Assembly: GCA_020722645.1 (NCBI GenBank)
Contig: DYKL01000003.1
Location: 1-40,985 of the forward strand
Length of the DNA: 40,985 nt
From: Acetofilamentum sp.
Lineage (GTDB): Bacteria > Bacteroidota > Bacteroidia > Bacteroidales > JAFGUD01
Direction: 5' to 3'
The first letter of the stretch is position 1; each line of letters starts with the position of its first letter. The position numbers and the translations under genes are program-made. Of this stretch, positions 2,940-26,500 are shown one piece after another. A model generated the notes under the pieces. That model worked only from the letters and a program-made list of their open reading frames with translations, ran no database searches and was not told the DNA's origin.

Positions 2940-4277
2940 TTACTGAATAATTTTCTTTTTGATTTGTATTGATTTGATAATTATGAAGATAAGTACAAAT
3001 AACGAAATAATTGAAATAATTAATGTTAATTCAAAGTATGCAGGGAAATATTTCAACGTTATCTTGTGGTGTCCTTTTTTAATTAAAAACCCTGTAAATC
3101 CTGTATTTGCCAAAATATATTTTGTGTTTATACCATCTATAAAGATTCTCCAGCCTTTATCATACGGAATAGTGAAAAAAAGCAGTTTGTCTTGTGTAAT
3201 TTCTATTTCGCCCTCTATATGTTTATGTTTGAACGATGTCATTTTAAAGGTTTCTTTTTTAAGGCTGTCTATCATTTTTGAATAAATATCAAAGTTGAAT
3301 TTATCAACAGTTACTAAACTATTTGTGTCTAATATACTTAAATTGTGTTCAAGGTTTTTATCCTCAATGACTACAGCACTAAGTAAAGCCTGTTGTTTTT
3401 TGAATGGTGTTAGTTTTTCAAATGTTTCAATTGGGATATATTTTGAATAAGTGTATCCAAAAGGGACAAAATATTTATTTTCAAGAATTAAAATATTGTT
3501 CATATATCCAATGCTGTCGAAACCGCTGAACATCAGTTTGTTTTCCAAGTTGCGAGTCAAAAAATATTTTACATTGGCAAAAGTCATCAAAAGCGGTATT
3601 CCTCTTACTCCGGTTGCCCATCTGGTTTGACCTTCGTTCCCTTTTTGAATAACTCCCACTTCTTCTAAAAATCGAATATAGTATTTTTGATTGAACGAAC
3701 CATACGAAGGTGTGCTGAAATATCCCTGAGCTTTTGCGTCATTAAGGCTTGAATGCTGCGAGTTTCCGGAAAAATAGTCTTTGTCAATTCTGTAAAACAT
3801 CGTGCTGTCTGTTTGCCTTAGATAATCTACAATTTCTATTGTTCCGTCTTTATATCCCGCCATTGTTCCTTTCATTTCATTGGTCATATAAACATCTCTG
3901 TCGTTTACCGAAAACCATGAGATATAGCTTACTTCCAGAGTAACAATAACAATCAATGCAATTTTTATAAAAGTTCTGTTTTTTTGTGAGTTTATTAAAA
4001 ATAACAATAAAGCATACAACATCAGAAACAAACTTATAATCAATTTCATTTTGAAATTAACCATTGTGTTATTAAAATCAAAATAAGGGAAATGTAAAAT
4101 AATTAACAAAACACCCGTCGAAACTACTATAAATACCGGATTTATTTTTTTGCCTGATGATAATTTATCTAAAGAATACATTGCAAAAAATAAAATTGTA
4201 AACGGTACAAATACATCAATGCTGTTTTTGAAATAATTACCAATAAAAAGATTTACAGCGTGTCTTAGAATTGGCAC
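2940..4277 (-). CDS. YfhO-family membrane protein, C-terminal fragment (frame continues from upstream fragment after a 1-nt shift)
   Basis: 445 aa. The C-terminal FTIPYDKGWRIFIDGINTKYILANTGFTGFLIKKGHHKITLKYFP is the typical YfhO C-terminus. The listed start is a GTG inside an open frame that extends upstream across the T12 tract. Confidence 0.75.
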   Translation of the reverse strand: MPILRHAVNLFIGNYFKNSIDVFVPFTILFFAMYSLDKLSSGKKINPVFIVVSTGVLLIILHFPYFDFNNTMVNFKMKLIISLFLMLYALLLFLINSQKNRTFIKIALIVIVTLEVSYISWFSVNDRDVYMTNEMKGTMAGYKDGTIEIVDYLRQTDSTMFYRIDKDYFSGNSQHSSLNDAKAQGYFSTPSYGSFNQKYYIRFLEEVGVIQKGNEGQTRWATGVRGIPLLMTFANVKYFLTRNLENKLMFSGFDSIGYMNNILILENKYFVPFGYTYSKYIPIETFEKLTPFKKQQALLSAVVIEDKNLEHNLSILDTNSLVTVDKFNFDIYSKMIDSLKKETFKMTSFKHKHIEGEIEITQDKLLFFTIPYDKGWRIFIDGINTKYILANTGFTGFLIKKGHHKITLKYFPAYFELTLIISIISLFVLIFIIIKSIQIKKKIIQ

Positions 4278-4285
4278 ATAAGCGA

Positions 4286-5383
4286 CTAAAAGCCAGAATA
4301 AAAGAAAGATACCGTAAAAAATTTTTTGTTTTTTATTAAAAAAAAAAAAGCATAAGTGAAAATCGAAAGACTTATAATTCCAATGTAAAAAAGAGCGGCT
4401 TCGAGATAATTATACCAACCTTTAAATTCGCTGCCTGAGCCTAAAAGGTCGTTTCCGAAAAATCTTAAAGTTGTTGTAACTCTACGTAAATATGCATCTA
4501 AAATTTCAGGGTTTTGTATCAGAGTTTTAGCCTGATTGACATTTCCGCTTACACGAGGACTTTCGAACATCATCAGGAAATTTGTCAGAGCTCTTGGTGC
4601 ATTTAATGCTACTGCCAAAATTGCAAACCCCGCCATTTTAAAAAATAGTTTATGGTAACCGCCAAATTTTCCGTCATTTGTGTCTAAGTGCCTGATTATA
4701 GAGTACATAAACAGAAAAATACCGTTTACTGCCAAACAGAAAAAATTATCGCTAAGTAAATAAAATGCAATAAAGAAATATATCCATCTTTTTTTCAATA
4801 GTAATTGCTCGAATGAAAAAAACAGAAAAACTGAATATAACAATCGGTGGGCGTGTCCCCATTGAGAGCCTACTATAAGATATCCCGAAAACTGCAGTAA
4901 CAAACCACCTATAATACATGTGAATTTTGAATAATTTAAAGTTTTAAAATATAAAAATCCCAAAATGCCAATCGGTAAAAAATATAAAAAATAATAAATA
5001 AAAAACCTGTAATACCATAAATTGATTCCAAAAATCAACTGCAATATTTGGGTAAAAATTGGAAAAGGATTTAAAGTAATAGAGCTTGAAACACTTTGTC
5101 CCATTCCTGTATAAAAAGTCCATGTTCTAAAAAAACCTTCTGATTTTTGGAGATTTATACCTTGTATGTAATTTGGGAAAGTTATGTTTATAGAATCGCT
5201 TCCAATATCTTGAAAAAAATACAGAAAATTTCCGGTAATAAAATCTTTAAAAACTATATATGAAGCAGTAAATGAAACTAATATAAAAATCCAAAAACCA
5301 TATTTTTCAATAAAATATTCTAATGAGAATTTACTTTGATTTATTTTTTCATTTATAACAATTTTTTTTTGGTTATTCTTCAT
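4286..5383 (-). CDS. YfhO-family membrane protein, N-terminal fragment
   Basis: 365 aa. FFQDIGSDSINITFPNY...WTFYTGMGQS is the typical YfhO N-terminal motif region. The ORF stops 8 nt before the next ORF, in a different frame. Confidence 0.75.
   Translation of the reverse strand: MKNNQKKIVINEKINQSKFSLEYFIEKYGFWIFILVSFTASYIVFKDFITGNFLYFFQDIGSDSINITFPNYIQGINLQKSEGFFRTWTFYTGMGQSVSSSITLNPFPIFTQILQLIFGINLWYYRFFIYYFLYFLPIGILGFLYFKTLNYSKFTCIIGGLLLQFSGYLIVGSQWGHAHRLLYSVFLFFSFEQLLLKKRWIYFFIAFYLLSDNFFCLAVNGIFLFMYSIIRHLDTNDGKFGGYHKLFFKMAGFAILAVALNAPRALTNFLMMFESPRVSGNVNQAKTLIQNPEILDAYLRRVTTTLRFFGNDLLGSGSEFKGWYNYLEAALFYIGIISLSIFTYAFFFLIKNKKFFTVSFFYSGF
4338..4349. repeat. A12/T12 homopolymer at the YfhO frame break
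   Basis: Twelve consecutive A on the + strand (T12 on the coding strand, read as FFFL). Adding one T fuses the two YfhO frames. Confidence 0.95.
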
Positions 5384-5543
5384 TTTTTCTTAATTTTGAA
5401 ATTTTTATATGTTAAAATTTATTATAGTATATAAAAATACAAATTGCTGATAGTTAAAACATTATTAATATTTTCTTTCTTTATTTTGTAATGTTGATTT
5501 GACAAAAGTAAATAAAAAAAAATGATTCAAAAATAAAAACAAA

Positions 5544-8276
5544 TTGAAAAAGACCTACTACATTTTTTTTATAATAATTATTTTTTTATCGTCTTGCAAC
5601 TTAAAAACTAACAAGATAAGTTCTGATGTTTCAAAAATAGACTTATCTGAAAAAGTTTTTGACAAGTATAATGTTTATTCATTAGCCGGCAGATGGAATT
5701 TTTATTGGGATACACTTTTAGAACCCTCTGAACTCAAAAATGTTAATATAAATCCTAAAGTTGTTTATACTCCGGCTTCTTGGGCTGAATATGAAATTGA
5801 TAATAAAAATTTACCAGCTACTGGTATTGCTACATACAATACTCAAATAATTTTGCCGGAAAAAGGCTTCTATGCGATGAAATTTAAAAGAATTTTTTTA
5901 TCCTACAAAGTTTGGATTAACGATTCTATTGCATTGGAAGTCGGTAAAGTATCTTCTGTCAAAAAAGGTTTTATTCCTAATGATTTAACAAAAGAACATA
6001 TTTTTTATACCGATACAAATATTGTTGATTTGACAATTCAGGTGTCAAACCATTTTTATAGAAAATCAGGTATTACAAACAATGTCGTTATTGGAACACC
6101 CGAATCAATAGAAAAATTGGCATATTCGAATCTCCTTTATGAAGTTTTCATTATCGGGGCTCTTGTTTTTATGATGATTTTCTATTTTATCCTCTATTTT
6201 TACAATAAACAAGTTAAATCAAATCTGTTTTTCTCATTATTTCTCTTTTTTGAAATACTGACTCTTGGTTTTGACGGAGAATTGTTTTTTGTCAGAATTT
6301 TTCCCCAGATTAACTGGATTATCGCATCAAAAGCATGGAACATTTCTTCTTTTCTTAGACCTCTGTTTTTATTGCTTTTTATAGAAGGTTTAACAAAAGA
6401 CTATTTTTCGCAGATTATTAAAAAAGTTTCTGTTTATTTTGTAGCTATAATGGCTCTTTTTATAGCTTTTACACCTGTTAAAATATACACACATACATTA
6501 TTACTTTTTATAATTTTTGCTCTCGGTTCTTTGATATACGAAATTTTTGTTACAGCAAAATCAATAAAACAGAACAAAAATATAATTTTTGCAATCTTGG
6601 GGCTGTCATTTATCTTTTTATCAACCATAAATGATACTTTATACGATTATAATATAATCAAAAGCTTTTATTCTGTAGGACTTGGTATTTTCTTGTTTGC
6701 ATTATTGCAGGCATTTCTGCTTTCTGTTAAAAATGCGGAATTATTCGAAAAAGCAGAAAATCTTACAAGTAGTGTTGAAATTCAAAATCGTCTAAAAGAG
6801 GCTCTACTTTCTACTCCTTCTTACGATATTGACAGTTCTTTGTTAGCTTTTGTAGAAAATGTAGGTGTTGAAAAAATTATGGTTTTTTCTATCGAAAACG
6901 AAAAAATATTTATCAGCAATTATGTCAAAAAAGACCAGACAAAACAAAAAGTTAAAATACCCGTTGAGTTTGACCAAAAAAATGAATTGTTTTATACAGA
7001 TTTTGTTAAAAAAGCTTTTTTAAATCACGAAATAACTGTCTTTTCTACTAAGAAAAAAAAGGATACAACAAATGACTATTTTGCTAAGAATAATATTAAA
7101 AATATAATTGTATTACCGCTTTTAGAGAAAGAAAACGTAATCGCAGTCATTTACATAGAAAATAAAATTTCGTACCTTACTAATTCCCAGTTAGCTGTCA
7201 TAAAATCCACTTCCTCGCAGTTTTATAATATTATAAATACTGCTGTTGCTTATATAAGGCTTAAAGCAGTTAATGAATATCTCGAAAAAGAAGTAAATAT
7301 AAGAACTGCCGAAGTCGAAAAACAAAAACACGATATTGATCATAAAAATCAAGAATTGGACGAAAAAATTCAGTTGCTCGAAGAACAATATATAATCCAG
7401 CAGGAAATTAACAGCGAACTTGAAACCCAAAACTTAGAGCTTGAAACTCAAAACGAACAAATAAGCGAACAAAACGAAGAAATCATTCAGCAAAAAGAAC
7501 AATTAGAAAAACACAATAAGTTAATTTCCGAGAATATTGAATATGCAAGCACAATTCTTAAAGGTTTGAATCAGACTGAAGTTGAAATTCCGTTTAGTAG
7601 CTCATTTTATTTAAGTTTGCCCAGAGACATAGTAAGCGGAGATTTTTTTTGGAGCAAACTTATCGGAAATAAATTCGTTTTTATCCTTGGTGATAGTACC
7701 GGACACGGCGTGCCTGGTGCTTTATTGAGCATTTTGGGTATTCGTCTGTTGAATAAAATTATCGCTGACCTTTTCGAAAAAGACTCTGATACCTTACCAT
7801 CTGCTATTCTGGATAATCTTAGGGATACGGTCAAAAAGCAACTTTCAGACGAAAACTCAGAAATGAAAGACGGATATGATATGTCTTGTTGCATTTATGA
7901 TACAAAATCTATGGAACTTTTATACTCTGGTGCATATAATCCTGTCTTTATTATTCGCGATAATAATATTATTCAACTAAAACCAGATAGAATGCCAATT
8001 GGCATTTATATTACAGGTTTTGAAAAACCTTTTTCACATCAAAAAATTCAGATTTTGCAAAAAGACAGAATTTATCTGTTTACTGACGGATTTATTGACC
8101 AATTTGGTGAAAAAACTGGCGAAAAAATATATATGACTAATTTTAAAAAAATTTTAATTGAAATGCAAAATCAGAATTTATCGGATCAAAAGAAATTGTT
8201 GGAAAATTTTTTTGCTGGTTGGAAAGGTAAAAAACCGCAAATCGACGATGTTAGTGTTGTCGGTTTTGAAGTTTAA
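5544..8276 (+). CDS. 7TMR-DISM sensor lipoprotein with GAF-like region, coiled coil and C-terminal SpoIIE/PP2C phosphatase domain (paralog 1, canonical motifs)
   Basis: 910 aa with a TTG start. Lipobox FLSSC. Extracellular GRWNFYWDTLLEP motif (7TMR-DISMED2-like). Seven hydrophobic helices at about aa 195-395. PP2C motifs are SGDFFW, GDSTGHGVPGALLS (7692-7712), TDGFIDQFG and IDDVSVVGFEV. Confidence 0.85.
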   Translation: MKKTYYIFFIIIIFLSSCNLKTNKISSDVSKIDLSEKVFDKYNVYSLAGRWNFYWDTLLEPSELKNVNINPKVVYTPASWAEYEIDNKNLPATGIATYNTQIILPEKGFYAMKFKRIFLSYKVWINDSIALEVGKVSSVKKGFIPNDLTKEHIFYTDTNIVDLTIQVSNHFYRKSGITNNVVIGTPESIEKLAYSNLLYEVFIIGALVFMMIFYFILYFYNKQVKSNLFFSLFLFFEILTLGFDGELFFVRIFPQINWIIASKAWNISSFLRPLFLLLFIEGLTKDYFSQIIKKVSVYFVAIMALFIAFTPVKIYTHTLLLFIIFALGSLIYEIFVTAKSIKQNKNIIFAILGLSFIFLSTINDTLYDYNIIKSFYSVGLGIFLFALLQAFLLSVKNAELFEKAENLTSSVEIQNRLKEALLSTPSYDIDSSLLAFVENVGVEKIMVFSIENEKIFISNYVKKDQTKQKVKIPVEFDQKNELFYTDFVKKAFLNHEITVFSTKKKKDTTNDYFAKNNIKNIIVLPLLEKENVIAVIYIENKISYLTNSQLAVIKSTSSQFYNIINTAVAYIRLKAVNEYLEKEVNIRTAEVEKQKHDIDHKNQELDEKIQLLEEQYIIQQEINSELETQNLELETQNEQISEQNEEIIQQKEQLEKHNKLISENIEYASTILKGLNQTEVEIPFSSSFYLSLPRDIVSGDFFWSKLIGNKFVFILGDSTGHGVPGALLSILGIRLLNKIIADLFEKDSDTLPSAILDNLRDTVKKQLSDENSEMKDGYDMSCCIYDTKSMELLYSGAYNPVFIIRDNNIIQLKPDRMPIGIYITGFEKPFSHQKIQILQKDRIYLFTDGFIDQFGEKTGEKIYMTNFKKILIEMQNQNLSDQKKLLENFFAGWKGKKPQIDDVSVVGFEV

Positions 8277-8281
8277 TTTCA

Positions 8282-10957
8282 ATGAATTTCAAATATTTAT
8301 ACATATTTGCTTTTTTGTCGTTGTTGTTTTTATCTTCTTGTAATAACAAAGAAGAAAAGAAAAATATAACTGCCGAAAATGGTGTTATAGTGATAAATAA
8401 CTTCGGAAACAATAAAAATTATCCCCTTGACGGAGATTGGGAATTTTATTGGAGTCAGTTGTTATTTCCTGTGAATTTTGAAAATTATAATATTGATACC
8501 GTTGATTTTGTAAAAGTTAATGGCGTTTGGAATAATTACATTGTTGATGATAATAAAATCGGTAAAAACGGCTTTGGTACTTTTCATCTTAAACTTGTTG
8601 TTCCAAAAGGTGAATATGGACTGAAAATCAGAAGAATAGAAACTGCCTATAATCTTTGGATAGATGACGTGCTAATTACAAGCAACGGAAATGTCGGCAA
8701 AGACAAAGAATCATCAGTTGCTCAGCTTCACCCAAAAATTGTTTTTTTTGATGTGAAAAATGATACAACAGATGTTGTTATTCAGGTCAGCAATTTTCAC
8801 CATCGGGTAGGAGGGATACAAAACAAAATTTTCATTGGAAAACCAAAAGATATTTATTGGAGTCAAACTGTAAGTTTGCTTACAACTTTTTTTCTAACCG
8901 GTAGTTTTTTGATTATAGCAATTTATTTCCTTTTTACTTTTATTTTTACTTCCCATAGTGGATTAGCTCCTCTTTATTTCAGCTTAACTATTATTTTCAG
9001 CATATTGTTTGCTCTTGTTAATGGTGAAAGTTTTTTTACCAAAATATTTACTGAAATGCCATGGGAAATGGTCAAAAAAACTGATTTTATAGGAAACTAC
9101 GGTAGGCTGATTTGTTTTATATTGTTTCTTAAGAGCATTTTTATGCAACATAAAATTTTATCTAATCTTTTAACAACAATAATTACCGTAATTTTTTCTC
9201 TTTTTGTTTTAGTCGTAATCGTTACTCCCGCATCTTTTTATACAAATACTTTGTATCCTTTTTTAGCTCTTACATTTGTAATTTTAATTTTTATTTCAGT
9301 TAAACTTTTTATTTTAGCCTTAAAAAAAGACACACCTGCAACAATTGTTTTGTTTGGAATAATAACAGTTGTAATCACTTTTGTTAATGATGCTCTTTCT
9401 TATGCTAATTTAATTAATACGCCTTATGTAGCAAATATTGGACTTTTTGTGTTTCTTCTGGCTAATTCCGTTGTCCTTGCCCTTAACATTTCTAATGCAA
9501 GAAAAACAAATGTTCAATATACGGCTTTGTTTGAAAATATCAATAAAATCCGATATGAACTATACAATATTAATTCATTCGACCTTGGTAAAATGTTAAG
9601 CATTGTAACCGTTGAAGTTAAATCTGACTTTTCTTCAATCTTTTTTATTGAAGACAACAAATATAAATGTGAAATTATTTATAATGCAGGTAATACTGAC
9701 AGTGCATTTTTAGGCGATGCTTTAAAAATTGATTTTAACGAAACTCTATTTGAGTATGTTAATCGAAAGAAGAAAACTATTGCTGTTAAAGATTACATTC
9801 TTTTACCTATTTACGATGAAAAAAAGATTAAAGCGGTTGTTTTTTTCAAGGAAGTTAAAGCCAGACTAAAACAAAGCACTGAAATTCTGGAAATGCTTCA
9901 AAATGAGTTTGATACATTTATTAGTAATTACACTTATTATTATCAACTACAAAATTTGAACAAAAACCTTGAAAAGATTGTAGAACAAAGAACAAACCTC
10001 ATTTTTAAACAAAAAGATGAACTGTTTATAAAACAAGCCTCACTTGATGAAAAATTGGAAGAGCTTAATATCAGCAACAGTATTATTGACGATATGAACA
10101 TAGAACTTATTAAAAAAGCATCTCTTATTGCTCAAAAAATAAAAGAATCAGAAGAAAAACAGAACAAAATAAAAAATCAGAAAGAAGTTATTGAATACAA
10201 AAATAAAACTATTTCAAGTAGCATTAATTATTCAAAAACTATTCAATCTACATTATTAAAATATACTCAACAAATTCCGAAATCTGAATATTTTGAAATT
10301 TCAATGCCTCGAAATATGGTAAGCGGAGATTTCTGGTTTTCTCAAAATTATAAAAATTACACAATAATTGCATTTTTTGATTCAACCGATACAAACGTTA
10401 TATCCACATTTTTATCTATTTATATAAAATCATTATTTGAGGAAGTTTTTAACAAAAACCCCGAACTTGTTATAAAAAGCCCTGATTTGTTTTTGAAGGA
10501 TATGAAAAATATATTCTTTGAAACTATTGACAAAGAAAGCCCGAAAGATGATGACTATGATGTGTTTTTATGCGTTATAAATCAGGAAAATGGAAAAATG
10601 GTTTATGCCGGCGAGGGTATTATAGCAAATATTGCAAGAGAAAAAGAAATTTTGGATTTAAACCTTGCAAAAAAAGTTTTTGTCGAAAGAAAAAATGTAG
10701 AATATGACAGCTCTGTTTTTGAGCTGCATTACGGAGATACTCTGTATGTTCAGTCTGACGGTTTGATTAATCAAATCGGACAAAAAACAAAGAAAAAATT
10801 TGGTCAGATAGCATTAAATAATATGCTGGGTGAAATTCAAAATTATGATTTCAACAAACAAAAAAATGAAATTATTAACACGTTTAAAACTTGGAAAGGT
10901 GACTTTAAGCAAGTAGATGATTACTTGTTTGTTGGTTTCAAGTTTATTGAATCTTAA
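8282..10957 (+). CDS. 7TMR-DISM sensor lipoprotein with degenerate PP2C-like C-terminal domain (paralog 2)
   Basis: 891 aa. Lipobox FLSSC and GDWEFYWSQLLFP motif. Same architecture as paralog 1. The metal-site motif reads FFDSTDTNVISTF (10379-10399) instead of D-x-T-G-H-G. Starts 5 nt after the paralog 1 stop. Confidence 0.8.
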   Translation: MNFKYLYIFAFLSLLFLSSCNNKEEKKNITAENGVIVINNFGNNKNYPLDGDWEFYWSQLLFPVNFENYNIDTVDFVKVNGVWNNYIVDDNKIGKNGFGTFHLKLVVPKGEYGLKIRRIETAYNLWIDDVLITSNGNVGKDKESSVAQLHPKIVFFDVKNDTTDVVIQVSNFHHRVGGIQNKIFIGKPKDIYWSQTVSLLTTFFLTGSFLIIAIYFLFTFIFTSHSGLAPLYFSLTIIFSILFALVNGESFFTKIFTEMPWEMVKKTDFIGNYGRLICFILFLKSIFMQHKILSNLLTTIITVIFSLFVLVVIVTPASFYTNTLYPFLALTFVILIFISVKLFILALKKDTPATIVLFGIITVVITFVNDALSYANLINTPYVANIGLFVFLLANSVVLALNISNARKTNVQYTALFENINKIRYELYNINSFDLGKMLSIVTVEVKSDFSSIFFIEDNKYKCEIIYNAGNTDSAFLGDALKIDFNETLFEYVNRKKKTIAVKDYILLPIYDEKKIKAVVFFKEVKARLKQSTEILEMLQNEFDTFISNYTYYYQLQNLNKNLEKIVEQRTNLIFKQKDELFIKQASLDEKLEELNISNSIIDDMNIELIKKASLIAQKIKESEEKQNKIKNQKEVIEYKNKTISSSINYSKTIQSTLLKYTQQIPKSEYFEISMPRNMVSGDFWFSQNYKNYTIIAFFDSTDTNVISTFLSIYIKSLFEEVFNKNPELVIKSPDLFLKDMKNIFFETIDKESPKDDDYDVFLCVINQENGKMVYAGEGIIANIAREKEILDLNLAKKVFVERKNVEYDSSVFELHYGDTLYVQSDGLINQIGQKTKKKFGQIALNNMLGEIQNYDFNKQKNEIINTFKTWKGDFKQVDDYLFVGFKFIES

Positions 10958-13653
10958 TGAATAATAAGTTAGTTTTTATATTATTATTTGGACTTTTTGT
11001 GTTTTTTTTCACTTCGTGTAAAAAAGAAAATTCTGAAAATCAAAAAGTAGTCAAGGGTGTTATAAATCTATCTGATTTTGACAAAGATAAAATTTATACT
11101 ATTCAAGGCGACTGGGAATTTTATTGGAATAAACTTTTAAAACCTTCCGAAATCAGAAACCTTCCGTCCGATTCTGTGAATTACACTTATGTGAACAACG
11201 GCTGGAACGATTTTATTTATAACGGACAAAAAATTAAAGGGTTTGGTTTTGCAACATACAGACTCAAAATAATAGCACCACAAGGTTTATATACTATCAA
11301 ATTCAGACAAATTCTGTCTGCATACAAAGTATGGATAAATGATAAATTGGTTTCACAAGTTGGTAATCCGGGAGATATTAATACACATAATGCCAAGATA
11401 TTGCCGAATGAAATTGTTTTTAGGTCTGTATCAGATACAATTGAAGTTGTTTTGCAGGTTAGTAATTATTCGCACAGAGTAGGAGGTATTCAGGAACTTG
11501 TAACTATCGGAAAACCTAATGTAATAACCGAAAGAGTAAAGAATAGTCTGAATTATTCGTTCTTTATTCTCGGTTCCGAAGCAATTTTTGCTTTGTATTT
11601 CCTTTTAACTTTCTTTTTCCGCCGAAAAAACATAGCTTATCTCTATTTTAGTTTCAGCATACTTACATCTTTGCTGTTTGAGATAGTAAATAATGAAATG
11701 TTTTTTATGAGAGTCTTGTCTGAAATTTCGAGTTTTGAATTAATCAAAAAAATCGACTTTTTATGCAATTACACTCGCCTCACATTTTTTAGTTTATTCT
11801 TTTGGGCTTTTTTTAAAGACAATAAAATAATAAACAAATATGTTTTCAGTGTTATTTTATCTATTTCTGTTATACTGGATTTGTATGTCTTATTTACTCC
11901 TTGCCGACTTTACTCAGAAACATTAATGTTTTTTATGGCGTTTGGTCTTATCAGTTTCCTTTATTTTACTTTTTCATTGTTGTACGGACTTTTCAAAAAA
12001 GTTAAAAATATTGTTTTTTCGTTTATCGGTATGTTAATTTTTAATATAGGACTTATAAATGATATTCTTTTCAATCTGAATGTTATTAATTCAATTTATT
12101 TGTTAAACACCGGATTGCTTATATTTTTTATTATGCAGAGTATTATACTTGCTCTTAATTATTCTTATACGCAATCAAGCGTTAATATTTTATCTAACAG
12201 ATTTATAGTGCTTGACCGTCTTAGAAATTCCTTTTTAAATATTACTTCTTACGATTTACCTAAAGCTTTGGAAATTATCAGTGCTGAATACGAAGCAGAT
12301 AAAATTGAAATTCTTGTTTATAATAACAAAAAAACATATTGCGAAAGCAAAAAACAAGATGGAAGTATTCTTTTTGCTCAGATGGAGCAGAATTTGACTT
12401 CTGATTTTGATGAAAATTTATTTATTGATTCAACCGTTAAATCTAAAAATTTACTTTTTCATAAAGATGAGTTTTCTGTTTTTTCTATGCCTTTAATTCA
12501 AAATGAAGAAATCAAGGCTGTCCTATTGCTTGGTAGAATTAAAAAATTCACTAAAGAAGAGCTTACTATTCTTGAAGATATATCTTCTCATATATCAGTT
12601 ATTTTTGAAAATTATAACTATTTCTGGACTTTGGACAAAATCAATAAAAATCTTGAGTTTTTAATTGATAAAAGAACAAAACTGGCATATAAACAAAAAG
12701 ATGAGCTAATTGCAAAAACGTTTGAACTTGACAAAAAAATTGAAGAACTTAATATTTCTTCAAAAATTGTTGATGATTTGAATCAGGAACTAATTACAAA
12801 CAGAAGAGAAATTACAGAGGCGCAACAAAAACTTATGATTCAGCAACAGGAAATTAATTCTCAGAAATTATTATTGACTGATAAAACCAAAAATATTAAT
12901 TCAAGCATAAATTATGCTCAAAAAATACATAAAACTTTATTTAGAATAAATCAAAGAGTTGATAACACAGAGATTTTTGAGTTTGCTAAACCAAAAGATA
13001 TTGTAAGTGGCGATTTCTGGGGCGTTTTTAAATCTGCTAACAAAATATACGTTACATTGGTTGATAGCACCGGACAGAACGTCAGTGGTACTTTTCTGAG
13101 TTTTTTAATTCTTTCTTTCATCGAAGAAATTATAATTGACAATTTCAGAAATGACTTGTCATCTGCTGATATTCTATATTTACTGAAAAATAAATACCTG
13201 AAATTTATTGGTGCTGAAAAAACTTCCAGACTAATTCAAGATAGCTTTGATATATCACTTGTTGCTTTTGACAATCGAAACAATGTGCTTGAGTTCAGCG
13301 GTGCAGGGCAACCGGCTTTGATTGTGCGAAAAGGTGAAAATATTTTTCTCGAACCTGATATAAGCCCTGTTGGTGGGCATCAACATTTTTTCGACAACAA
13401 ATACAAAAACAAAAAAATCGAGTACAAAAAAAACGATACTGTTTATTTATTCAGTGACGGATTTAGTAATCAGATTACAAAAGAAACTAAACAAAAATTT
13501 GGTATAAATAATTTTTTACTGTTGCTTAACAGCATTTCTCCTTATGCTTTCGATAAACAAAAACACGATTTAAATGAAAAATTTGATGAACTTTTGCAAA
13601 ACATCAGACAAATTGATGATGTTTTAGTCGTTGGTGTAAAGTTTAATATCTGA
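10957..13653 (+). CDS. 7TMR-DISM sensor lipoprotein with partly degenerate PP2C-like C-terminal domain (paralog 3)
   Basis: 898 aa. Lipobox FFTSC and GDWEFYWNKLLKP motif. The motif reads LVDSTGQNVSGTF (13063-13083). The start ATG overlaps the paralog 2 stop (TAATG). Confidence 0.8.
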   Translation: MNNKLVFILLFGLFVFFFTSCKKENSENQKVVKGVINLSDFDKDKIYTIQGDWEFYWNKLLKPSEIRNLPSDSVNYTYVNNGWNDFIYNGQKIKGFGFATYRLKIIAPQGLYTIKFRQILSAYKVWINDKLVSQVGNPGDINTHNAKILPNEIVFRSVSDTIEVVLQVSNYSHRVGGIQELVTIGKPNVITERVKNSLNYSFFILGSEAIFALYFLLTFFFRRKNIAYLYFSFSILTSLLFEIVNNEMFFMRVLSEISSFELIKKIDFLCNYTRLTFFSLFFWAFFKDNKIINKYVFSVILSISVILDLYVLFTPCRLYSETLMFFMAFGLISFLYFTFSLLYGLFKKVKNIVFSFIGMLIFNIGLINDILFNLNVINSIYLLNTGLLIFFIMQSIILALNYSYTQSSVNILSNRFIVLDRLRNSFLNITSYDLPKALEIISAEYEADKIEILVYNNKKTYCESKKQDGSILFAQMEQNLTSDFDENLFIDSTVKSKNLLFHKDEFSVFSMPLIQNEEIKAVLLLGRIKKFTKEELTILEDISSHISVIFENYNYFWTLDKINKNLEFLIDKRTKLAYKQKDELIAKTFELDKKIEELNISSKIVDDLNQELITNRREITEAQQKLMIQQQEINSQKLLLTDKTKNINSSINYAQKIHKTLFRINQRVDNTEIFEFAKPKDIVSGDFWGVFKSANKIYVTLVDSTGQNVSGTFLSFLILSFIEEIIIDNFRNDLSSADILYLLKNKYLKFIGAEKTSRLIQDSFDISLVAFDNRNNVLEFSGAGQPALIVRKGENIFLEPDISPVGGHQHFFDNKYKNKKIEYKKNDTVYLFSDGFSNQITKETKQKFGINNFLLLLNSISPYAFDKQKHDLNEKFDELLQNIRQIDDVLVVGVKFNI

Positions 13654-16672: not shown

Positions 16673-19600
16673 TTATATAATTGACAGAACGATTAATCCA
16701 ATAACTATAACTGCTGTTGATATTAAAAGTATATATTTTAGTTTTTTTTGTTTTTTTATAAATTTAAAAATTTTCTCAATTCCTGAAATACCTCTTTTAA
16801 GATGCTCAAAATAAAGAGGAGGATATAAAAGTAAAGTCATAAACCAAATGACAGCCATGTTAAACCAATATGTATCAAAATGTTTTCCGAAGAAATATTT
16901 TTCAGGAGCGTAAAAATGTGCTCTGAATCCTATAAAATTACTGTCGTCAGGTTCTTGGAAAATTGGCTCTGCCTGTCGTACTAGTTCATCTTTATATCTT
17001 AAAATTTTGTATTTTTCGTATGTGTTGGTAACTATATCTTTTACGTGTTCATTTTCGTATTTGTTACGTAATCTTATATATAAACCAGGGTCTTTTAATG
17101 CCATTGCATTTTTTAAAGCTTCTTTTTCGGAATCTTTCTGAAAATTTATTGTTCCGTAAAATTTTCCAAGTTCTTCAAAATAATAAACCGTTTCATCATA
17201 AATATCTTCATCGAATTTTTCTAATGTCAGGTAATCCATATAATCATAACTAACGTCTTCACCTGTTTTAGTAAGCTCCTTGCCGATTTCGTTTTTGAGC
17301 AAAGCAAGATTTTCAGTAATTATCTGGTCGATAGAATCTACATTGGCTTCTTCGTCAAAGTCTTTTGTGTCAATTCCGTCAATAATATCTGTAAGTGCTT
17401 CTTCCAATTCTGGTATCCAGTGAACTTGCATAAAGTCGGCTTTGCTTATCTGACGGTCAATTTCGAAAAATGCTTCTTCAAATACATTGTTTTTAAACTG
17501 ATGCACCATTAAAGCTTCGTATGCCCATCTGGACTGCATAAACTCTGCAACTACCGGAACCTTGTCTATACTTCCGATTTTTCTGTTTAATTTGCTAAAG
17601 CTGAACATTGCACCGCCTAATGACATTAATGGAATCATTATCAGCGGAATTAGGATATATATTGTTACGGCTGAATTGAAAGTTGCTGAAATATTAAGCC
17701 CCAGCATATTGGCATATACAAAAGTTGAAAATAGTGCAAACCAATAAAAAAAGTTCATTCCCACAATTCCCAACATTGTATTTCCTATCAAGACGTATTC
17801 AATTGCCTGTATTGCTGAAATAACAGTAAGAATTATTATTTTAGCCATTAAATAGCTTGACCGCGAAAGGTTTAGAAATGCTTCCCGTTTTAATATTTTT
17901 CTGTCTCTGTATATTTCTTCGGCACTAACAGTAAGTCCCAGGAATAATGCAACTACAATGCTCATAAATATGAACGGTGGAATGTTTTCATTGTCGAAGA
18001 AAATATATACGTTTGAGGTCGGGTCGGCAATATAGCGTATTAAAAATGATAAAATGAATGCAAGTAAAGGTGCTTCTGTCATACTAAGCACAATATACTG
18101 TGTATTGCTTAATTTAGAAAGCAAATCTCGTGTCAAAAATATTTTTAACTGATTAAACCAGTTTGGCAAATTAAGTGTTTTTTCGGGTTTATCGTCCGAT
18201 TTTTCGACACGTGATATTTCTTTTTGACCATAGTAGGTTTCAGACCAAGCAATCGGTGTTACTTTTCTGTTTGGAGTGTATCTGCCGAACTCATCAACAA
18301 CTTTTGCTTCTATAATATCAAAAATCAGTTCAGGTTTTACTGTTCCGCAAACATGGCATTCTCCAACATCACTGCTGACTTGTTTATCAAGGGTTTTGAA
18401 GTATATAATTGCTTCAACAGGGTTCCCGTAATATACCTGATAGCCACCTGTATCTAAAATCATCATATTATCAAACATTTTGTAAATGTCTGATGACGGT
18501 TGGTGGATTACTACAAAAATTAGTTTCCCTTTCAGAGCTAATTCTCTCAGAAGGTCCATTACATTTTCAGAATCTCTTGAAGAAAGACCCGATGTCGGTT
18601 CATCAACAAAAAGAATCAAAGGTTCTCTGATTAATTCTAATGCAATATTGAGTCTTTTTCTTTGTCCGCCGCTTATAAGTTTGTTGAAAACATTACCTAC
18701 TTTAAGGTGTTTTATTTTATCAAGACCTAAATTAGTAAGTGTTTGATTAACAAGATTAGTTAAATCTGAGTCTTTTTTATCTTTAAAACAAAGTTTGGCA
18801 CTGTAGTATAGGTTTTGAAAAACAGTTAATTCTTCAATTAATAGGTCGTCTTGTGGTATGTAGCCAATTGTTCCTTCAAGTTTATCTTTTTGTGTATGTA
18901 GATTTAAGTTATTAATCATTACAGATCCGGAAGTGGGAGTGTAAATACCGGATAAAATATTTAATAAAGTGGTTTTTCCTGAGCCGCTTGCTCCGAGAAT
19001 TCCTATTAGTTTTCCTTGTGTTTCGGATAAATTGATTCTTTGTAAGCCTATATCTCCTGTTGGAAATTTATAATGAACATCTTTAACGTCGAATGATAAT
19101 TTAGAAACAGAAATGTCAGATAAGAATTTTGCAACAACATCGCTGTAATAAACAGGTTTTCCTTTTGGTAGTTTCAGAGTACTTCCGGTTGCGTATAGGT
19201 AAATTCTTTGGTTGCTTATAGGTAAACCGTTTAAAAGGACGCCTTCGTTACCGGTGTAACGCATAAAATATAATTCTGAACTTGAAATTCTCAGAACTAA
19301 AATTTTACCGTCAATATGGTCTGTCTTAATAGAAAGGCAGCTTTGACACAAAACATCTTCATCGTCAATAATTAAAATGCAACTTTTGTCAATTTTTTCA
19401 AGTTCATTTTCAATAACAAAGTCTCTGATGTTTGAATAATCTTCTTTTGAAACATTAAACACCTCTGCAACGGTATCAATAATAGCCATTCTTTGTTCTG
19501 TAAACTGACGGCTAGTATTTACCATTTCGAAAAGACGGACAAGTACAACAATTTTTTGGTTTTGGTCTAAGGTTTTATTGATTTTTCTGCAAAGACCTAA

Positions 19601-19837
19601 TGTTCTAACGGATTCTTGAACCGGCGTGAGTTGTTTTTTCTTTTTTTCAACTTGTGCAAATTCGTCAATTTCAGCTTTTTCCTTGAATTTTTTAAGATAT
19701 TCCTGTACAGCTTCATGACCGAGTTGTTGTGTTAAAAAAGATTCAACAAATTCCAGTTCTTTTGTGTGTACTCCTTCATCTTGTTTTGCGATAATGGCAA
19801 GGAGTTGAATTAAGGCATTTAATATTTCTTCACTCAT
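16673..19837 (-). CDS. ABC transporter, fused ATP-binding and ABC-2-type permease (ABCG-like NBD-TMD order) with a roughly 245-aa N-terminal regulatory extension
   Basis: 1054 aa. Walker A GASGSGKTTLLNILSG, signature LSGGQRKRLNIALELI, Walker B ILFVDEPTSGL, and H-loop VIHQPS. At least six C-terminal TM helices with a long loop before the last ones. The N-terminus carries two TerB-like helical segments plus a beta-rich segment. Confidence 0.85.
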   Translation of the reverse strand: MSEEILNALIQLLAIIAKQDEGVHTKELEFVESFLTQQLGHEAVQEYLKKFKEKAEIDEFAQVEKKKKQLTPVQESVRTLGLCRKINKTLDQNQKIVVLVRLFEMVNTSRQFTEQRMAIIDTVAEVFNVSKEDYSNIRDFVIENELEKIDKSCILIIDDEDVLCQSCLSIKTDHIDGKILVLRISSSELYFMRYTGNEGVLLNGLPISNQRIYLYATGSTLKLPKGKPVYYSDVVAKFLSDISVSKLSFDVKDVHYKFPTGDIGLQRINLSETQGKLIGILGASGSGKTTLLNILSGIYTPTSGSVMINNLNLHTQKDKLEGTIGYIPQDDLLIEELTVFQNLYYSAKLCFKDKKDSDLTNLVNQTLTNLGLDKIKHLKVGNVFNKLISGGQRKRLNIALELIREPLILFVDEPTSGLSSRDSENVMDLLRELALKGKLIFVVIHQPSSDIYKMFDNMMILDTGGYQVYYGNPVEAIIYFKTLDKQVSSDVGECHVCGTVKPELIFDIIEAKVVDEFGRYTPNRKVTPIAWSETYYGQKEISRVEKSDDKPEKTLNLPNWFNQLKIFLTRDLLSKLSNTQYIVLSMTEAPLLAFILSFLIRYIADPTSNVYIFFDNENIPPFIFMSIVVALFLGLTVSAEEIYRDRKILKREAFLNLSRSSYLMAKIIILTVISAIQAIEYVLIGNTMLGIVGMNFFYWFALFSTFVYANMLGLNISATFNSAVTIYILIPLIMIPLMSLGGAMFSFSKLNRKIGSIDKVPVVAEFMQSRWAYEALMVHQFKNNVFEEAFFEIDRQISKADFMQVHWIPELEEALTDIIDGIDTKDFDEEANVDSIDQIITENLALLKNEIGKELTKTGEDVSYDYMDYLTLEKFDEDIYDETVYYFEELGKFYGTINFQKDSEKEALKNAMALKDPGLYIRLRNKYENEHVKDIVTNTYEKYKILRYKDELVRQAEPIFQEPDDSNFIGFRAHFYAPEKYFFGKHFDTYWFNMAVIWFMTLLLYPPLYFEHLKRGISGIEKIFKFIKKQKKLKYILLISTAVIVIGLIVLSII

Positions 19838-19858
19838 TTTTTAATAATAGACATAATA

Positions 19859-20251
19859 TTAGTCCACTTCATAGCTTACTTGTTCAAAAGGTACTTCAAC
19901 TATATCAGCATATTCTTCGCCTGCCTCTTCCATATCTTCATCATCTTCGGGATAATGCCATCTAACGAGTACATCGTGACCGTCGTCGTACATATCTTCT
20001 AATTTTAATAAAACGTCAAGCAATAATTTTGAAGATGCTGTGTTGAAATATTCGAGTTTGAAATCGAAAATCGTTTTTTCCATAGGTGACTGTGCATATT
20101 CATCTAACCACTCTAATATAGGTTCGTAAAATGCTACAACATCTTCGGGCAGTGAACGACCCGAAATTTCAAAAATCGGATTATCTTTATTTGGATCTAA
20201 TATTACCTTAGGAGTGTCATCTGTACCTTGAATTTTAATTGGCTGTAACAT
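19859..20251 (-). CDS. DUF1987 / SiaC-like regulatory phosphoprotein
   Basis: 130 aa. Motifs GTDDTPKVILDP, ISGRSLPEDVVAFYEPILEWL, LEYFNTASSK (candidate phospho-Thr71, codon 20039-20041), VRWHYPEDD, and an acidic tail. These match my recollection of the DUF1987 family pattern. Confidence 0.7.
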   Translation of the reverse strand: MLQPIKIQGTDDTPKVILDPNKDNPIFEISGRSLPEDVVAFYEPILEWLDEYAQSPMEKTIFDFKLEYFNTASSKLLLDVLLKLEDMYDDGHDVLVRWHYPEDDEDMEEAGEEYADIVEVPFEQVSYEVD

Positions 20252-20276
20252 ATTTGATTTTTTTTTTTGTTAAAAA

Positions 20277-20867
20277 TTAGTTATCTGATTTTAAACGAGA
20301 AATAGTAGAAGTAAGAACAAAAAATGATTTTTCTTCGTCAATTTTGATGAAACTGTAAACCAGTTTTTGTCCTGTTTTTCGGGCAATATCAATAAAACCT
20401 AATCCGGCACCACCTTTTTCCGAAAGACGTCCTTCTTTAATTTTTTGTTTATAGAGTTTATTAAGCTCTTCTTTGTCGAGTTGATTTATGTGTTCAAGCA
20501 TTTTTTTCAACTCGTCAATTTTTTCGTTGATAACCACATTTCCGGTTGTAACGTTATATTCTTTTTCGTCTTTGCTTACCAAAAAAATACCTCTTCCATC
20601 TTTAGACTCAACAAAGTTAAACTGATTATCTGCGTGTTTGCTTATGTTTTGTAAACATTCGACCATAACATGAAAAACTTTCTTTTGAACCGAACTGTAA
20701 TCTTCATCCTTAATCATATTGTTTTCAGTCAAAGATGTAAAAGCTTTGGTTATCTGATGTGTAATTTCTCCCTCGTAAGCTAAGTTTATATTGTTTTTTT
20801 TCATCTTAAGATAAAAATCGTAAACAAACTCAAGGGATTTTTTACTGTCTTTTAAAATATTTGCCAT
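20277..20867 (-). CDS. SiaB-like protein kinase (GHKL/HATPase-like, anti-sigma-kinase fold)
   Basis: 196 aa. N-box-like VECLQNISKH and G2-box GGAGLGFIDIARKTG. Its size, and its position between a PP2C gene and a DUF1987 gene, fit the assignment. Confidence 0.7.
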   Translation of the reverse strand: MANILKDSKKSLEFVYDFYLKMKKNNINLAYEGEITHQITKAFTSLTENNMIKDEDYSSVQKKVFHVMVECLQNISKHADNQFNFVESKDGRGIFLVSKDEKEYNVTTGNVVINEKIDELKKMLEHINQLDKEELNKLYKQKIKEGRLSEKGGAGLGFIDIARKTGQKLVYSFIKIDEEKSFFVLTSTISRLKSDN

Positions 20868-20882
20868 ATTTAGAAAAAGTTT

Positions 20883-23562: not shown

Positions 23563-26500
23563 TTATTCAAAAGTATCAAGCCATTCTTTATATAAATTAT
23601 CATCTTCTTGGTCAAATTTATCTGTTATGCTATCTTCAATTTCTTTTAGACGTTGATTTTCTTCTTCGGCTAACTGAAATTCTTTTAGTAATTCTTCCAT
23701 ATTCTGAGTCATAATTTTTTCTTGAATTACAAGTTCATTTTCAAGTCTTTTTTGTTCAGAAATATCAAAAGCCAGATATAATATTTTTACAATATTTCCA
23801 TGTATGTTTTTTACAGGAGTATATTGGTTTAAAAGCCAGACATCTTCGTCTGTCATTTTGTTTTTTCTTTTTACAACTATTTGTTGAAGTTCTCCTTGGT
23901 TGACTTTTTTCCAAATTTTTTCAAATTCTTCAAATTCTTCTTCTGGAATGAATTCTTTAATGTTTTTACCAATCATTATTTCAGGATCATATCCTAAAGT
24001 AGAAACGTGAATACTGTTTGAAGAAACAAAAGTACCTTCGGGTAAATACTCAGCTCGCATTAGTGTTTGATCCACCGCAGAAAACAATGCTGTTAGTTCC
24101 AGTTCGTTTTGTTGAGTTTTTTCGAGTAGTTCTTTTGTTTGTTGTTCCATTTTTTTTTCTTCGGTAATATCAATACCAAGATACAGTATTTCAATTACAT
24201 CACCTTTTGTGTCAAAAACCGGATTATATTGGTTTTTCAACCAAATGTCTTCGTCTGTAGTTTTGTTTTTTCTTCTAGCAACAAGTTCTTTTTGATTCCC
24301 TTTACAAACTTCTTTCCAGAGAATTTCAAAATCCTCTTTTTCATTTTCAGGAATAAATTCAAGAATTTTTTTACCAATCATACTGTTTACTTCATAACCC
24401 ATTATTGATTGGTGTACCTGATTTGATTCTATGAACACACCTTCTGTTGTATATCTGGCGCGCATAATAGTCCTATCAATACCGCTAAGAATGTTTTTAA
24501 GGGCAAGTTCTTTTAATTGAGCTTCACTAAGAAGGTCGGCAGCCATTTGTTCTACTTGTTTCTGTTCTGTTATGTCTATTGCAAGATATAAAACTTTAAT
24601 AACACTGCCTGTATTATCTTTGATAGGTGTGTATTGGTTTAATAACCAGACATCTTCTCCGGTTGCTTTATTGGTTCTTTTTACGGTAATTTGTTCAAGG
24701 TTTCCTTCTTTTACGCTATCCCATATAATAATGAAATTTTCTTTGTCTTCTTCGGACAAAAATTCCAGTATATTTTTACCAATCATATTTTGTTTGTCAT
24801 ATCCGAGAGTGTGGGTATGAATTTCGTTTGCATCAACAAAAGTACCATCGGGAAGATATTCTGCTCTCATAATTGCCTGGTCTATACCGGATAAAATACC
24901 GCTTAACTGAATTTCTTTTTGTTGAGCTTCGGTAAGTAGCTTTGCAGCAATTTGTTCTGCCTTTTTTTGTTCGGTAATATCAATACCCAGATAAAGAATT
25001 TTAATAACGTCACCGTCTTGATTTTCGATTGGCGTGTATTGATTTAACAGCCATATATCTTCTCCGGTGGACATATTGATTCTTTTGACAGTGGCTTGTT
25101 CCAGATTACCTCTCTTGACTCTGTTCCAAATTTTATGAAAATTATCTCTTTCGTTTTCGGGAATAAATTCAGTAATATTTTTCCCTTTCATATTTTCAAT
25201 GTCGTATCCCAGAGTTTGAGCGTGAATATCGTTTGCATTGATAAAGGTTCCATCAATATAATATTCGGCACGCATTATTGCCTGGTCGATACCGGTAAAT
25301 ATACCTCTTAGTTCAAGCTCGTTTTGTTTTGTTTGAGTAAGCAGCTCCTGTGCTTTTGCTTCTGCTTGTTTTTGTTCAGTAATATCAATAGCCAGATAGA
25401 GGATTTTAACAATATTATTATTTTCGTCAGAAATAGGGTTGTATTGATTTATTAACCATATTTCTTTGCCAGTACTTTTATTTACTCTTTTAACTGTAAG
25501 TTCTTTTGGCTTTCCGGAAACAACTTCTTTCCATAATTTTTTAAAATTTTCTCTTTCTTCTTCCTGAATGAAATCAAGGATGTTTTTACCTGACATATTC
25601 TGAATTTCGTAACCCATAATTCTTTGGTGAACAGAATTCGAGTTAATAAAGGTTCCGTCGACTGAGTATTCAGCACGCATAATTGTTCTATCTACGCCGG
25701 AGAGAACTCCTTTAAGCTCAACCTCTTTTTCTTGAGTTTCTTTAAGTAATTTTTGGGATTTTTCTTCAGCAACTTTTTGTTCGGTAATGTCAATAGCAAG
25801 ATAGAGAACTTTAATAACTTTGCCTTTGTCATCTTTGATAGGAGTGTACTGGTTCAAAAGCCAAATATCGGCTCCTGTCATTTTATTCTGACGTTTAACT
25901 GTAATTTGAATAGGTCTTCCGGCAGATACATCAGACCAAATTCTGTTAAAATTGTTAAGGTCTTCTTTTTGGATAAATTCGAAAATGCTTTTTCCCTTCA
26001 TTGCTTCAATTTCATAACCCATTGTTTGTCTGTGAACAAGGTTTGAATTGATGAATTTACCGTCAGGAGAATATTCGGCACGCATAAGAGTTTGGTCAAC
26101 ACCTGTAAGAATACCGGTCATTTCGATTTCGTTTCTTTTAGCTATCTGGTGTGCTTTGGTAACTTCCTGCATAGTATCCTGCAGAATTTTTTCACGGTTA
26201 GCTAATTCATCGGATTTTTTCTGAGATTCTTTAAGAAGTTCAATAGTTCTTGCGTTGATTTTTGCAGTTTCGAGAGTAGCAGCAATAGAACGGCAAAGCG
26301 TTTCAGAAAATTCCACTTCAAATTTTTCGAAATTTCTGATAGAAGCTATTTCAATTACCCCAAGTAAACCATTGTCGGTAAGTAAAGGGAGAATAAGAAG
26401 GTTGTTTGGTGGAGCATCACCAAGACCGGATTCAATTTCAAGATAGTCAGATGGTATTTGAGTCAGATGAATAGATGATTGGTCAATAGCAACTGTTCCG

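Follow-up and report, generated by a model that had tools for sequence, protein, structure and literature searches.

Among the described systems nearest to the proteins considered here are SiaA and the RsbU/SpoIIE-type phosphatases. In SiaA-PP2C, D457, D474, D600 and D653 coordinate the metals M1 and M2, together with the backbone carbonyl of residue 475, which binds M2; D457, D474, G477, D600, G601 and D653 are strictly conserved (PMC7647112). A third metal, M3, has D600 as its ligand, with D604 and D534 giving water-mediated support, and the domain dimerises through alpha1-alpha3 (PMC7647112). A crossing helical linker and an alpha1/alpha2 switch set metal binding, rate and specificity in enzymes of the RsbU/SpoIIE type (PMC8080068, PMC12143880), and the switch element adds to substrate specificity in SpoIIE and RsbU (PMC8080068). 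A paper on the signalling helix names PP2C as one of the outputs connected by such helices (PMC1592074). Here we describe three consecutive genes, A, B and C, in a 40,985-nt stretch of DNA from Acetofilamentum sp. (GenBank:DYKL01000003.1, positions 1 to 40,985; this whole stretch is called the window), each encoding a 7TMR-DISM membrane receptor that ends in a PP2C domain.

An earlier note on this DNA had proposed a stepwise erosion of the metal-site motif, leaving one active phosphatase with two pseudo-phosphatases. The best reading of the locus is an operon that would encode three paralogous envelope sensors. Comparison of the sequences supports as real both the canonical state of A and its conserved pairing with the non-canonical B and C, and this pairing is a more interesting result than an erosion of the metal site. 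The odds slightly favour (probability about 0.55) B and C being selected, metal-binding phosphatase subunits, re-tuned or attenuated, that work together with A.

Metal ligands and altered residues of the PP2C domains

All three C-terminal domains passed the Pfam SpoIIE cut-off of 25 bits (PF07228), with 73.9 bits for A, 28.4 for B and 40.4 for C. By sequence, their sole close solved relative was SiaA-PP2C (PDB:6k4e), matched by A, B and C with expectation values (E) of 5.1e-18, 1.6e-09 and 3e-09, respectively, and of 1.4e-35 with a profile. A model of B residues 600-891 (predicted local distance difference test, pLDDT, 85.7) had the alpha-beta-beta-alpha PP2C fold, and its top match in the PDB was 6k4e_B (E 2.0e-17; TM-score 0.89 on the target; root-mean-square deviation 2.4 A). 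The NCBIfam SiaA model (NF038263) gave 116.7, 83.1 and 81.6 bits, far under its cut-off of 700, and was matched only at positions 384-657 of 658, corresponding to the PP2C part; A, B and C are therefore not SiaA orthologs.

Residues were mapped through the alignments of A, B and C to 6k4e, with the numbering offset taken from the alignment of A and the roles from PMC7647112. Kept in all three proteins are D457 (the Asp of SGD), D474 (the Asp of D-S-T; A D717), D600-G601 (DG), D653 (first Asp of DD) and D534 (last Asp of DGxD), and the carbonyl of C475, a backbone atom, corresponds to A S718. B and C differ from A at 1) H478 (A H721), replaced by Thr or Gln, 2) G479 (A G722), Asn in both, 3) the start of alpha1, where VPGA is changed to V-S/T-x-T, 4) the Gly of DGxD (A G777), replaced by Asp or Ser, and 5) D604 (A D852, the Asp of DQ), Asn in both. 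The equivalent of G477 (A G720) is Asp in the window's B only.

The motif strings reported earlier were all found in the translations, including the drift of the DGxD block (KDGYD, DDDYD and QDSFD) and the SGDF and final DD retained in the three proteins; the positions then given for the D-x-T-G-H-G strings (7692-7712, 10379-10399 and 13063-13083) span 7-residue cores (DSTGHGV, DSTDTNV and DSTGQNV) and not the 11-residue strings. The assignment of the changed residues to the binuclear metal site did not hold. In the alignment to SiaA they are not ligands of M1 or M2, an outcome that the earlier note itself had said would count against its proposal. The M1/M2 Asp ligands were invariant in 8/8 proteins from the three genomes of the genus and were also present in all 22 B/C-clade domains compared below, in both non-canonical genes of family f53 and in 24/25 clade members overall, the exception being P0122. 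Since the changed positions are not ligands and the Asp residues are all kept, metal-site erosion is unsupported, and because every M1/M2 ligand is kept in B and C, the two fall outside what is usually called a pseudo-phosphatase. In the alignment, the loop His position is occupied by Ser in RsbX, a phosphoserine phosphatase of solved structure, and the His is thus not universal in the wider family; nothing usable on its role was found in the literature. A change of Gly to Asn (21/22 clade domains) or Asp (1/22) should be a conservative one where the turn needs a positive phi, and Ser and Thr should serve well as helix caps.

Within the window's genome (3.9 Mb; G000), a custom profile detected 56 PP2C domain pieces, in 46 of which the loop was visible, and D-[CS]-T-G-H-G was present in 42 of these 46. 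The four exceptions were B and C themselves and two genes outside their contig (C364 and C411). When the pattern tested was D-[CS]-T-G-H-G-V-P-G-A together with DGxD and DG..DQ, A fitted the canonical form and B and C did not. An exhaustive profile search matched 34,110 representatives (E up to 0.001), and the 150 best and A, with 155 domains in total, were examined: 148 were canonical, 6 were B/C-like and 1 (P0145 domain 1) was without any ligands. In a position-by-position comparison of 152 canonical with 22 B/C-clade domains (A numbering), G699, D700, D717, D841, D848, G849, Q853, D901 and D902, conserved in the canonical set, were identical in 22/22 of the clade. Three further residues were 100% conserved in the canonical set and changed in the clade, namely H721 (Arg, Ile, Gln, His or other), G722 (Asn in 21/22) and G725 (Ala, Ser or Gly); G777, 97% Gly in canonical domains, was mostly Ser, and D852, 95% Asp, was Asn (12) or Lys (10) in 22/22.

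Other departures from the canonical pattern were noticed during these searches. C364 (G000, 7078-10812; L178, 2079-5812) encodes an orphan 1244-aa Reg_prop/PAS/PP2C protein with no PP2C neighbour, and its loop is divergent (GHR), with DSID and NQ. P0141, P0143 and P0145 are putative TPR-PP2C-TPR-PP2C double proteins. Both PP2C domains are canonical in P0141, the first domain of P0143 is altered around the third-metal site, and P0145 combines a first domain without any ligands with a canonical second one.

Descent of the canonical and non-canonical genes

Related loci were compared in two genomes of the same genus (G001 and G002), two of another family (G300 and G189) and one of a third family (G352). 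G001 carries the same A-B-C triplet, with an A-B gap of 2 nt and a B-C overlap of 4 nt, and in G002 a C-type gene comes after A. A was 63% identical to its ortholog in G001, and B and C were each 50% identical to theirs (57, 45 and 47% for A, B and C in the PP2C domain only); A was 47% identical to its G002 ortholog. The PP2C values being in line with the rest of each protein, this domain is not specifically relaxed. In G300 and G189, a canonical 7TMR-DISM-PP2C gene is followed by an overlapping non-canonical gene, in which SGD, D, DG and DD are kept, D852 is replaced by Lys, and the loop and DGxD are altered; the best matches of the G300 second gene outside its own genome were the C and B genes of the window's genus. 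Canonical and non-canonical genes were adjacent and tightly spaced in 5/5 genomes with visible context (G000, G001, G002, G300 and G189). Close relatives were found in only 6 of 401 sampled genomes of the order. Database searches provided 3 further clade members for B and about 14 for C, the metagenomic members being P0007-P0016, P0116-P0119, P0142, P0144, P0151, P0181 and P0122; C-clade relatives in metagenomes were 39-50% identical. Orthologous triplets were absent from the 80 loci returned by a genome-contig scan with B (all at most 32% identical, mostly in the sensor half), and B/C-clade loci from the 80 returned by a metagenome-contig scan (general 7TMR-DISM patterns; all at most 33%).

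A careful tree (22 rows, LG+C20+F+G4; supports given as ultrafast bootstrap/SH-aLRT) placed A together with the first, canonical genes of the G300 and G189 pairs (99/99) and the G300 second gene with B and C (99/97), the entire non-canonical clade being supported at 91/94. B and C were sisters (97/95), the B clade (n=4) having a long stem (0.84) and end branches (0.36-0.50) comparable to the C ones (0.43-0.55). The topology was the same in quick trees built from other samplings, where the non-canonical clade had supports of 92 and 81. On these trees, the non-canonical lineage, with its position immediately downstream of a canonical A-type gene, is older than the divergence of two Bacteroidales families, and it duplicated again, into B and C, within this genus.

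B and C share G -> N, VPGA -> V-S/T-x-T, DG -> DS/DD and DQ -> NQ from one ancestor, and G -> D and H -> T are private to the window's B, being seen in 1/4 B-clade sequences. The stepwise erosion proposed earlier, in the order A, C, B, is contradicted by the tree and the motif table, in which B and C share their derived state from a common ancestor. The idea of B as a dying gene was also discarded, by conservation across the B clade. Lower Pfam scores and the faster change of B and C than of A (50% versus 63% identity to the G001 orthologs) would also result if B and C were redundant duplicates drifting neutrally into pseudogenes, a process that we hold to be very improbable here, as three genomes have kept unbroken frames of some 890-900 codons, the same derived residues and all Asp ligands recur in at least 22 clade members, the lineage is older than the family split, and a confident fold is predicted for B.

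Ligand loss was also seen in other receptors. P0122, which is sister to the second gene of G189 (support 100/100; identity 37%), no longer has a ligand at any of the four positions, showing N, Q, NN and a single D at the ligand motifs, and has kept its receptor. In G352, an overlapping pair (L179, G352:C39, 6460-11740) consists of an upstream 7TMR-DISM/GAF protein, whose PP2C domain is without ligand residues, and a downstream canonical gene; this pair is independent of the window's clade on the tree.

The earlier proposal of one active phosphatase with two pseudo-phosphatases stands in part: the asymmetry is conserved, A is canonical, B and C are outliers and the pairing recurs, but the M1/M2 ligands are kept. 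In its strict form, B and C would be catalytically dead and would form heterodimers with A via the linker helices and alpha1/alpha2, giving one active site with two sensors. We regard this as possible but doubtful. The adjacency in five genomes is in keeping with it, as are the position of the changed residues in the loop and helix of the SiaA dimer interface and switch (PMC7647112 and PMC8080068), the fully dead PP2C of P0122 within the clade, the dead and canonical genes paired independently in G352, and the dead and canonical domains joined in one chain in P0145. Retention of M1/M2 ligands in 24/25 clade members, however, would be unexpected if catalysis and metal binding were unneeded; moreover, two other overlapping tandem PP2C pairs in the genome are both canonical, and the orphan C364 has a non-canonical loop with no PP2C neighbour to work with. 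Complex prediction for A 576-910 with C 565-898, the only pair folded, lends this form slight support with a score of 0.41 (runs 0.43, 0.41 and 0.40; best control 0.00), the contact agreement being at least 79% and the partner pLDDT at least 78. Of 157 solved complexes, 116 attained the mark set for such scores, as did 2 of 215 mismatches; with a score of 0.60 or less, the mark was attained by only 18 of the 157 solved complexes and by both passing mismatches. The pass of A with C may reflect likeness to the solved SiaA homodimer. When the tool itself is tested, close cousins of true partners pass as well.

An arrangement that we consider unlikely is that of obligate asymmetric heterodimers (A-B and A-C), in which the two-metal centre of the divergent subunit would hold phospho-SiaC without turnover, its third-metal site and switch being disabled, and one extracellular signal would gate the single active site of the partner. 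If true, bacterial PP2C enzymes would have their own equivalent of pseudokinase/kinase pairs, and one that is kept across Bacteroidales families.

Receptor halves, gene layout and neighbourhood

The three genes were confirmed as co-linear open reading frames (ORFs) of 910, 891 and 898 aa on the + strand, and both the 5-nt gap between A and B and the TAATG overlap of B and C were seen in the sequence (Table 1). Pairwise identities were 26% (A-B), 28% (A-C) and 35% (B-C), with E values among the three (6e-85 to 8e-151) that place their paralogy well above chance. In each of the three genus members compared, the A-type gene is annotated as starting with TTG (5544 in the window, 12018 in L093 and 9868 in L094), and the signal peptide of the window's A contains no Met residue.

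Table 1. Positions in the window of the three genes, their junctions, protein domains and motifs
Feature	Position	Strand	Remarks
Candidate Bacteroidetes-type -7 element	5391-5398	+	TAATTTTG; upstream of A; pattern match, weak
Gene A	5544-8276	+	ORF, 910 aa, TTG start
A, ectodomain	5604-6128	+	putative sugar-binding-like jelly-roll fold (from model of B)
A, 7TMR-DISM membrane core	6135-6725	+	Pfam PF07695
A, PP2C domain	7587-8273	+	custom hidden Markov model (HMM; envelope, residues 682-910), Pfam SpoIIE
A, motif II loop and alpha1 start	7689-7721	+	GDSTGHGVPGA, canonical
A, third-metal motif	8082-8102	+	TDGFIDQ
A/B junction	8274-8284	+	TAA-TTTCA-ATG, 5-nt gap, from sequence
Gene B	8282-10957	+	ORF, 891 aa; loop most derived
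B, ectodomain	8342-8878	+	predicted sugar-binding-like jelly-roll fold (model)
B, 7TMR-DISM membrane core	8879-9481	+	Pfam PF07695
B, PP2C domain	10274-10948	+	custom HMM (envelope, residues 665-889), Pfam SpoIIE
B, motif II loop	10376-10408	+	FDSTDTNVIST; Asp ligand retained
B, third-metal motif	10754-10774	+	SDGLINQ
B/C junction	10955-10959	+	TAATG, one base common to stop and start
Gene C	10957-13653	+	ORF, 898 aa
C, ectodomain	11020-11556	+	putative sugar-binding-like jelly-roll fold (from model of B)
C, 7TMR-DISM membrane core	11557-12153	+	Pfam PF07695
C, PP2C domain	12961-13647	+	custom HMM (envelope, residues 669-897), Pfam SpoIIE
C, motif II loop	13060-13092	+	VDSTGQNVSGT
C, third-metal motif	13453-13473	+	SDGFSNQ

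A lipobox Cys follows the N-terminal hydrophobic stretch by eye in all three proteins (LSSC in A and B, FTSC in C), as had been noted before, and was also found in A, B and C of G001 and in P0007, P0008, P0010, P0116 and P0118; members of the other C subclade (C2; the G002 gene, P0009 and P0012-P0016, among others) have an ordinary signal peptide without the Cys. The extracellular GDWEFYW motif attributed to the three proteins is present in B and C, and A reads GRWNFYW. The model of the B ectodomain (pLDDT 85.8; predicted TM-score, pTM, 0.83) had its nearest PDB folds in GH2 glycosidases, whose N-terminal sugar-binding jelly roll it resembles (6ncx_D, E 7.9e-07, TMq 0.53), and Atlas leads were weak (BetaGal_ABD2/GH2_N, 0.77). 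Searches at E up to 5 detected no Pfam family in the ectodomains, including a 7TMR-DISMED-type domain.

The seven transmembrane helices were confirmed by Pfam 7TMR-DISM_7TM (63.8, 64.6 and 61.7 bits for A, B and C; cut-off 29), with matches covering profile positions 3-203 of 205 (5-203 in C). For the GAF-like region, GAF_2 gave 18.1 bits in A and 19.7 in C, both below the cut-off of 28.6, and nothing in B; two relatives pass Pfam GAF (29.3 and 23.6 bits, cut-off 22.4), and the middle region is probably a diverged GAF domain. The coiled-coil region corresponds to a long helix, which in the model of B occupies the 60 residues ahead of the PP2C domain. A heptad and charge analysis of this linker, bearing on homo- versus heterodimers, showed that the register shifts along the helix.

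The Bacteroidetes -7 promoter consensus is TAnnTTTG. A scan with sigma-70 rules, which do not fit Bacteroidota, gave 62 promoter-like sites versus 56.1 expected, and the promoter/terminator scan found no terminator between or after A, B and C. Among the sequencing runs listed, only one DNA run, which may be the source, carries the locus, and no RNA run does. A proline dehydrogenase gene follows C both in the window and in G001, and a gene for a YfhO-family membrane protein, intact in G001, G002 and G300, diverges from the A-type gene in these three genomes as well as in the window. In the window this gene is broken into ORFs 4286-5383 and 2940-4277 (- strand) in different frames, corresponding to residues 2-355 (67% identity) and 369-811 (64%) of the intact 812-aa G001 ortholog; as read from the sequence, the split is a frameshift or an assembly error. 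Further along the window, 23563-27690 (- strand) encodes a 1375-aa protein with GAF and at least six PAS domains, in which Pfam detected no output domain.

Putative partner switch and comparison with known systems

The window's genome gave 53 SpoIIE, 20 SiaC, 16 DUF6272 (SiaB-like) and 1 STAS matches, and each of five other genomes with such pairs had 14-20 SiaC matches. These many SpoIIE, SiaC and SiaB-like matches make a SiaB/SiaC partner switch the likely target. The window itself has PAS/GAF/PP2C, DUF6272 and SiaC genes in a row at 19859-23492, extended by a TerB-ABC exporter gene (16673-23492, - strand; Pfam).

By analogy with SiaA, RsbU and SpoIIE, the receptors would be dimeric. A sugar-type ligand outside the cell could act through the long helix on the alpha1/alpha2 switch of the dimeric PP2C, which would dephosphorylate one or more of about 20 SiaC-type phosphoproteins and so oppose the DUF6272 kinases. 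A would be the canonical enzyme, and B and C would bring two further extracellular signals into the same pathway. Because the changes of B and C sit at the loop, the switch start and the M3 support, binding of metal and phospho-SiaC is most likely kept and catalysis or regulation altered. B and C would thus still bind metal and phospho-substrate, with a change in catalysis, metal dependence or the switch, and their catalysis is probably attenuated.

The abundance of SiaC also bears on a different view, in which A, B and C would be three independent active homodimeric receptor phosphatases, the changes retargeting B and C to another SiaC or metal and co-transcription being their only tie to A. 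All M1/M2 ligands are kept, the ectodomains differ (31-39% identity among the paralogs), there are about 20 SiaC paralogs to discriminate, the switch shapes substrate specificity in SpoIIE and RsbU (PMC8080068), and tandem canonical pairs are common. We nevertheless think it quite unlikely, as it leaves unexplained how positions that never vary among 152 canonical domains serving many SiaC paralogs came to change only here, why pairing with a canonical gene has lasted across families, and why one clade member has lost all ligands.

Several observations weigh against B and C being metal-binding subunits that act with A on this switch. The triplet operon contains no SiaB or SiaC gene, the nearest being about 6 kb off on the other strand with a phosphatase of their own. 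The window's B has Asp at the equivalent of G477, a strictly conserved Gly in SiaA (PMC7647112), and the Pfam SpoIIE score drops from A to C and further to B. The residues replaced in B and C are invariant across the 152 canonical domains, and may therefore be essential for catalysis, in which case the two proteins might have no activity. Long branches lie deep in the non-canonical part of the tree (1.87 for the G300 second gene), so that long-branch attraction is possible. Finally, P0122 has no ligands and is otherwise intact, which indicates that catalysis is dispensable in at least one branch.

SiaA-type PP2C sensors are hugely expanded in some Bacteroidales, with about 50 in the 3.9-Mb genome considered here and about 20 SiaC targets, which raises the question of how signals are kept apart or combined in such networks. 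A lineage in which the ligands are kept and the loop, the switch start and the third-metal support are rewritten, beside a canonical paralog, provides a natural experiment on the role of invariant residues and on whether PP2C receptors act as mixed dimers. Should the divergent subunits prove attenuated or substrate-trapping, bacterial Ser/Thr partner switching would gain a layer of the pseudoenzyme type.

Among known systems, SiaA of the Pseudomonas aeruginosa SiaABCD system (PDB:6K4E) is the top sequence match of all three PP2C domains and the fold match of the B model, with the same acidic residues, and the window's genome likewise encodes many SiaC and SiaB-like proteins. Unlike SiaA, the proteins described here have a 7TMR-DISM sensor with a predicted jelly-roll ectodomain, the genes for SiaB, SiaC and SiaD are absent from the operon, and B and C lack equivalents of H478, G479 and D604. 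With RsbU, RsbP and SpoIIE they share conserved metal ligands and, in the model of B, a helical linker directly N-terminal to the PPM domain, and B and C diverge at the M2-carbonyl loop and alpha1 start, an element which in those enzymes governs metal affinity, rate and specificity; we infer that the linker may regulate A, B and C as in RsbU-type enzymes. RsbU, RsbP and SpoIIE, however, act on STAS proteins and are soluble or carry other membrane domains, whereas STAS gave a single match here and SiaC-type targets are abundant.

The PP2C-like domain of RssB, an Escherichia coli response regulator, is reportedly inactive, its catalytic residues having been lost. RssB is thus a bacterial PP2C-like domain in a non-catalytic role, resembling P0122 and the upstream G352 gene in being without the ligand Asp residues and differing from B and C, which keep every M1/M2 ligand. 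In the literature searched, no paper named both 7TMR-DISM and SpoIIE. RetS, a 7TMR-DISM sensor, is said to act on a catalytically competent partner, in a RetS-GacS heteromer, and not by catalysis of its own. RetS and LadS of the GacS network have the same membrane core and, going by the model of the B ectodomain, may also be alike in having a carbohydrate-binding-like ectodomain, but in the proteins described here the output is PP2C, not a histidine kinase.

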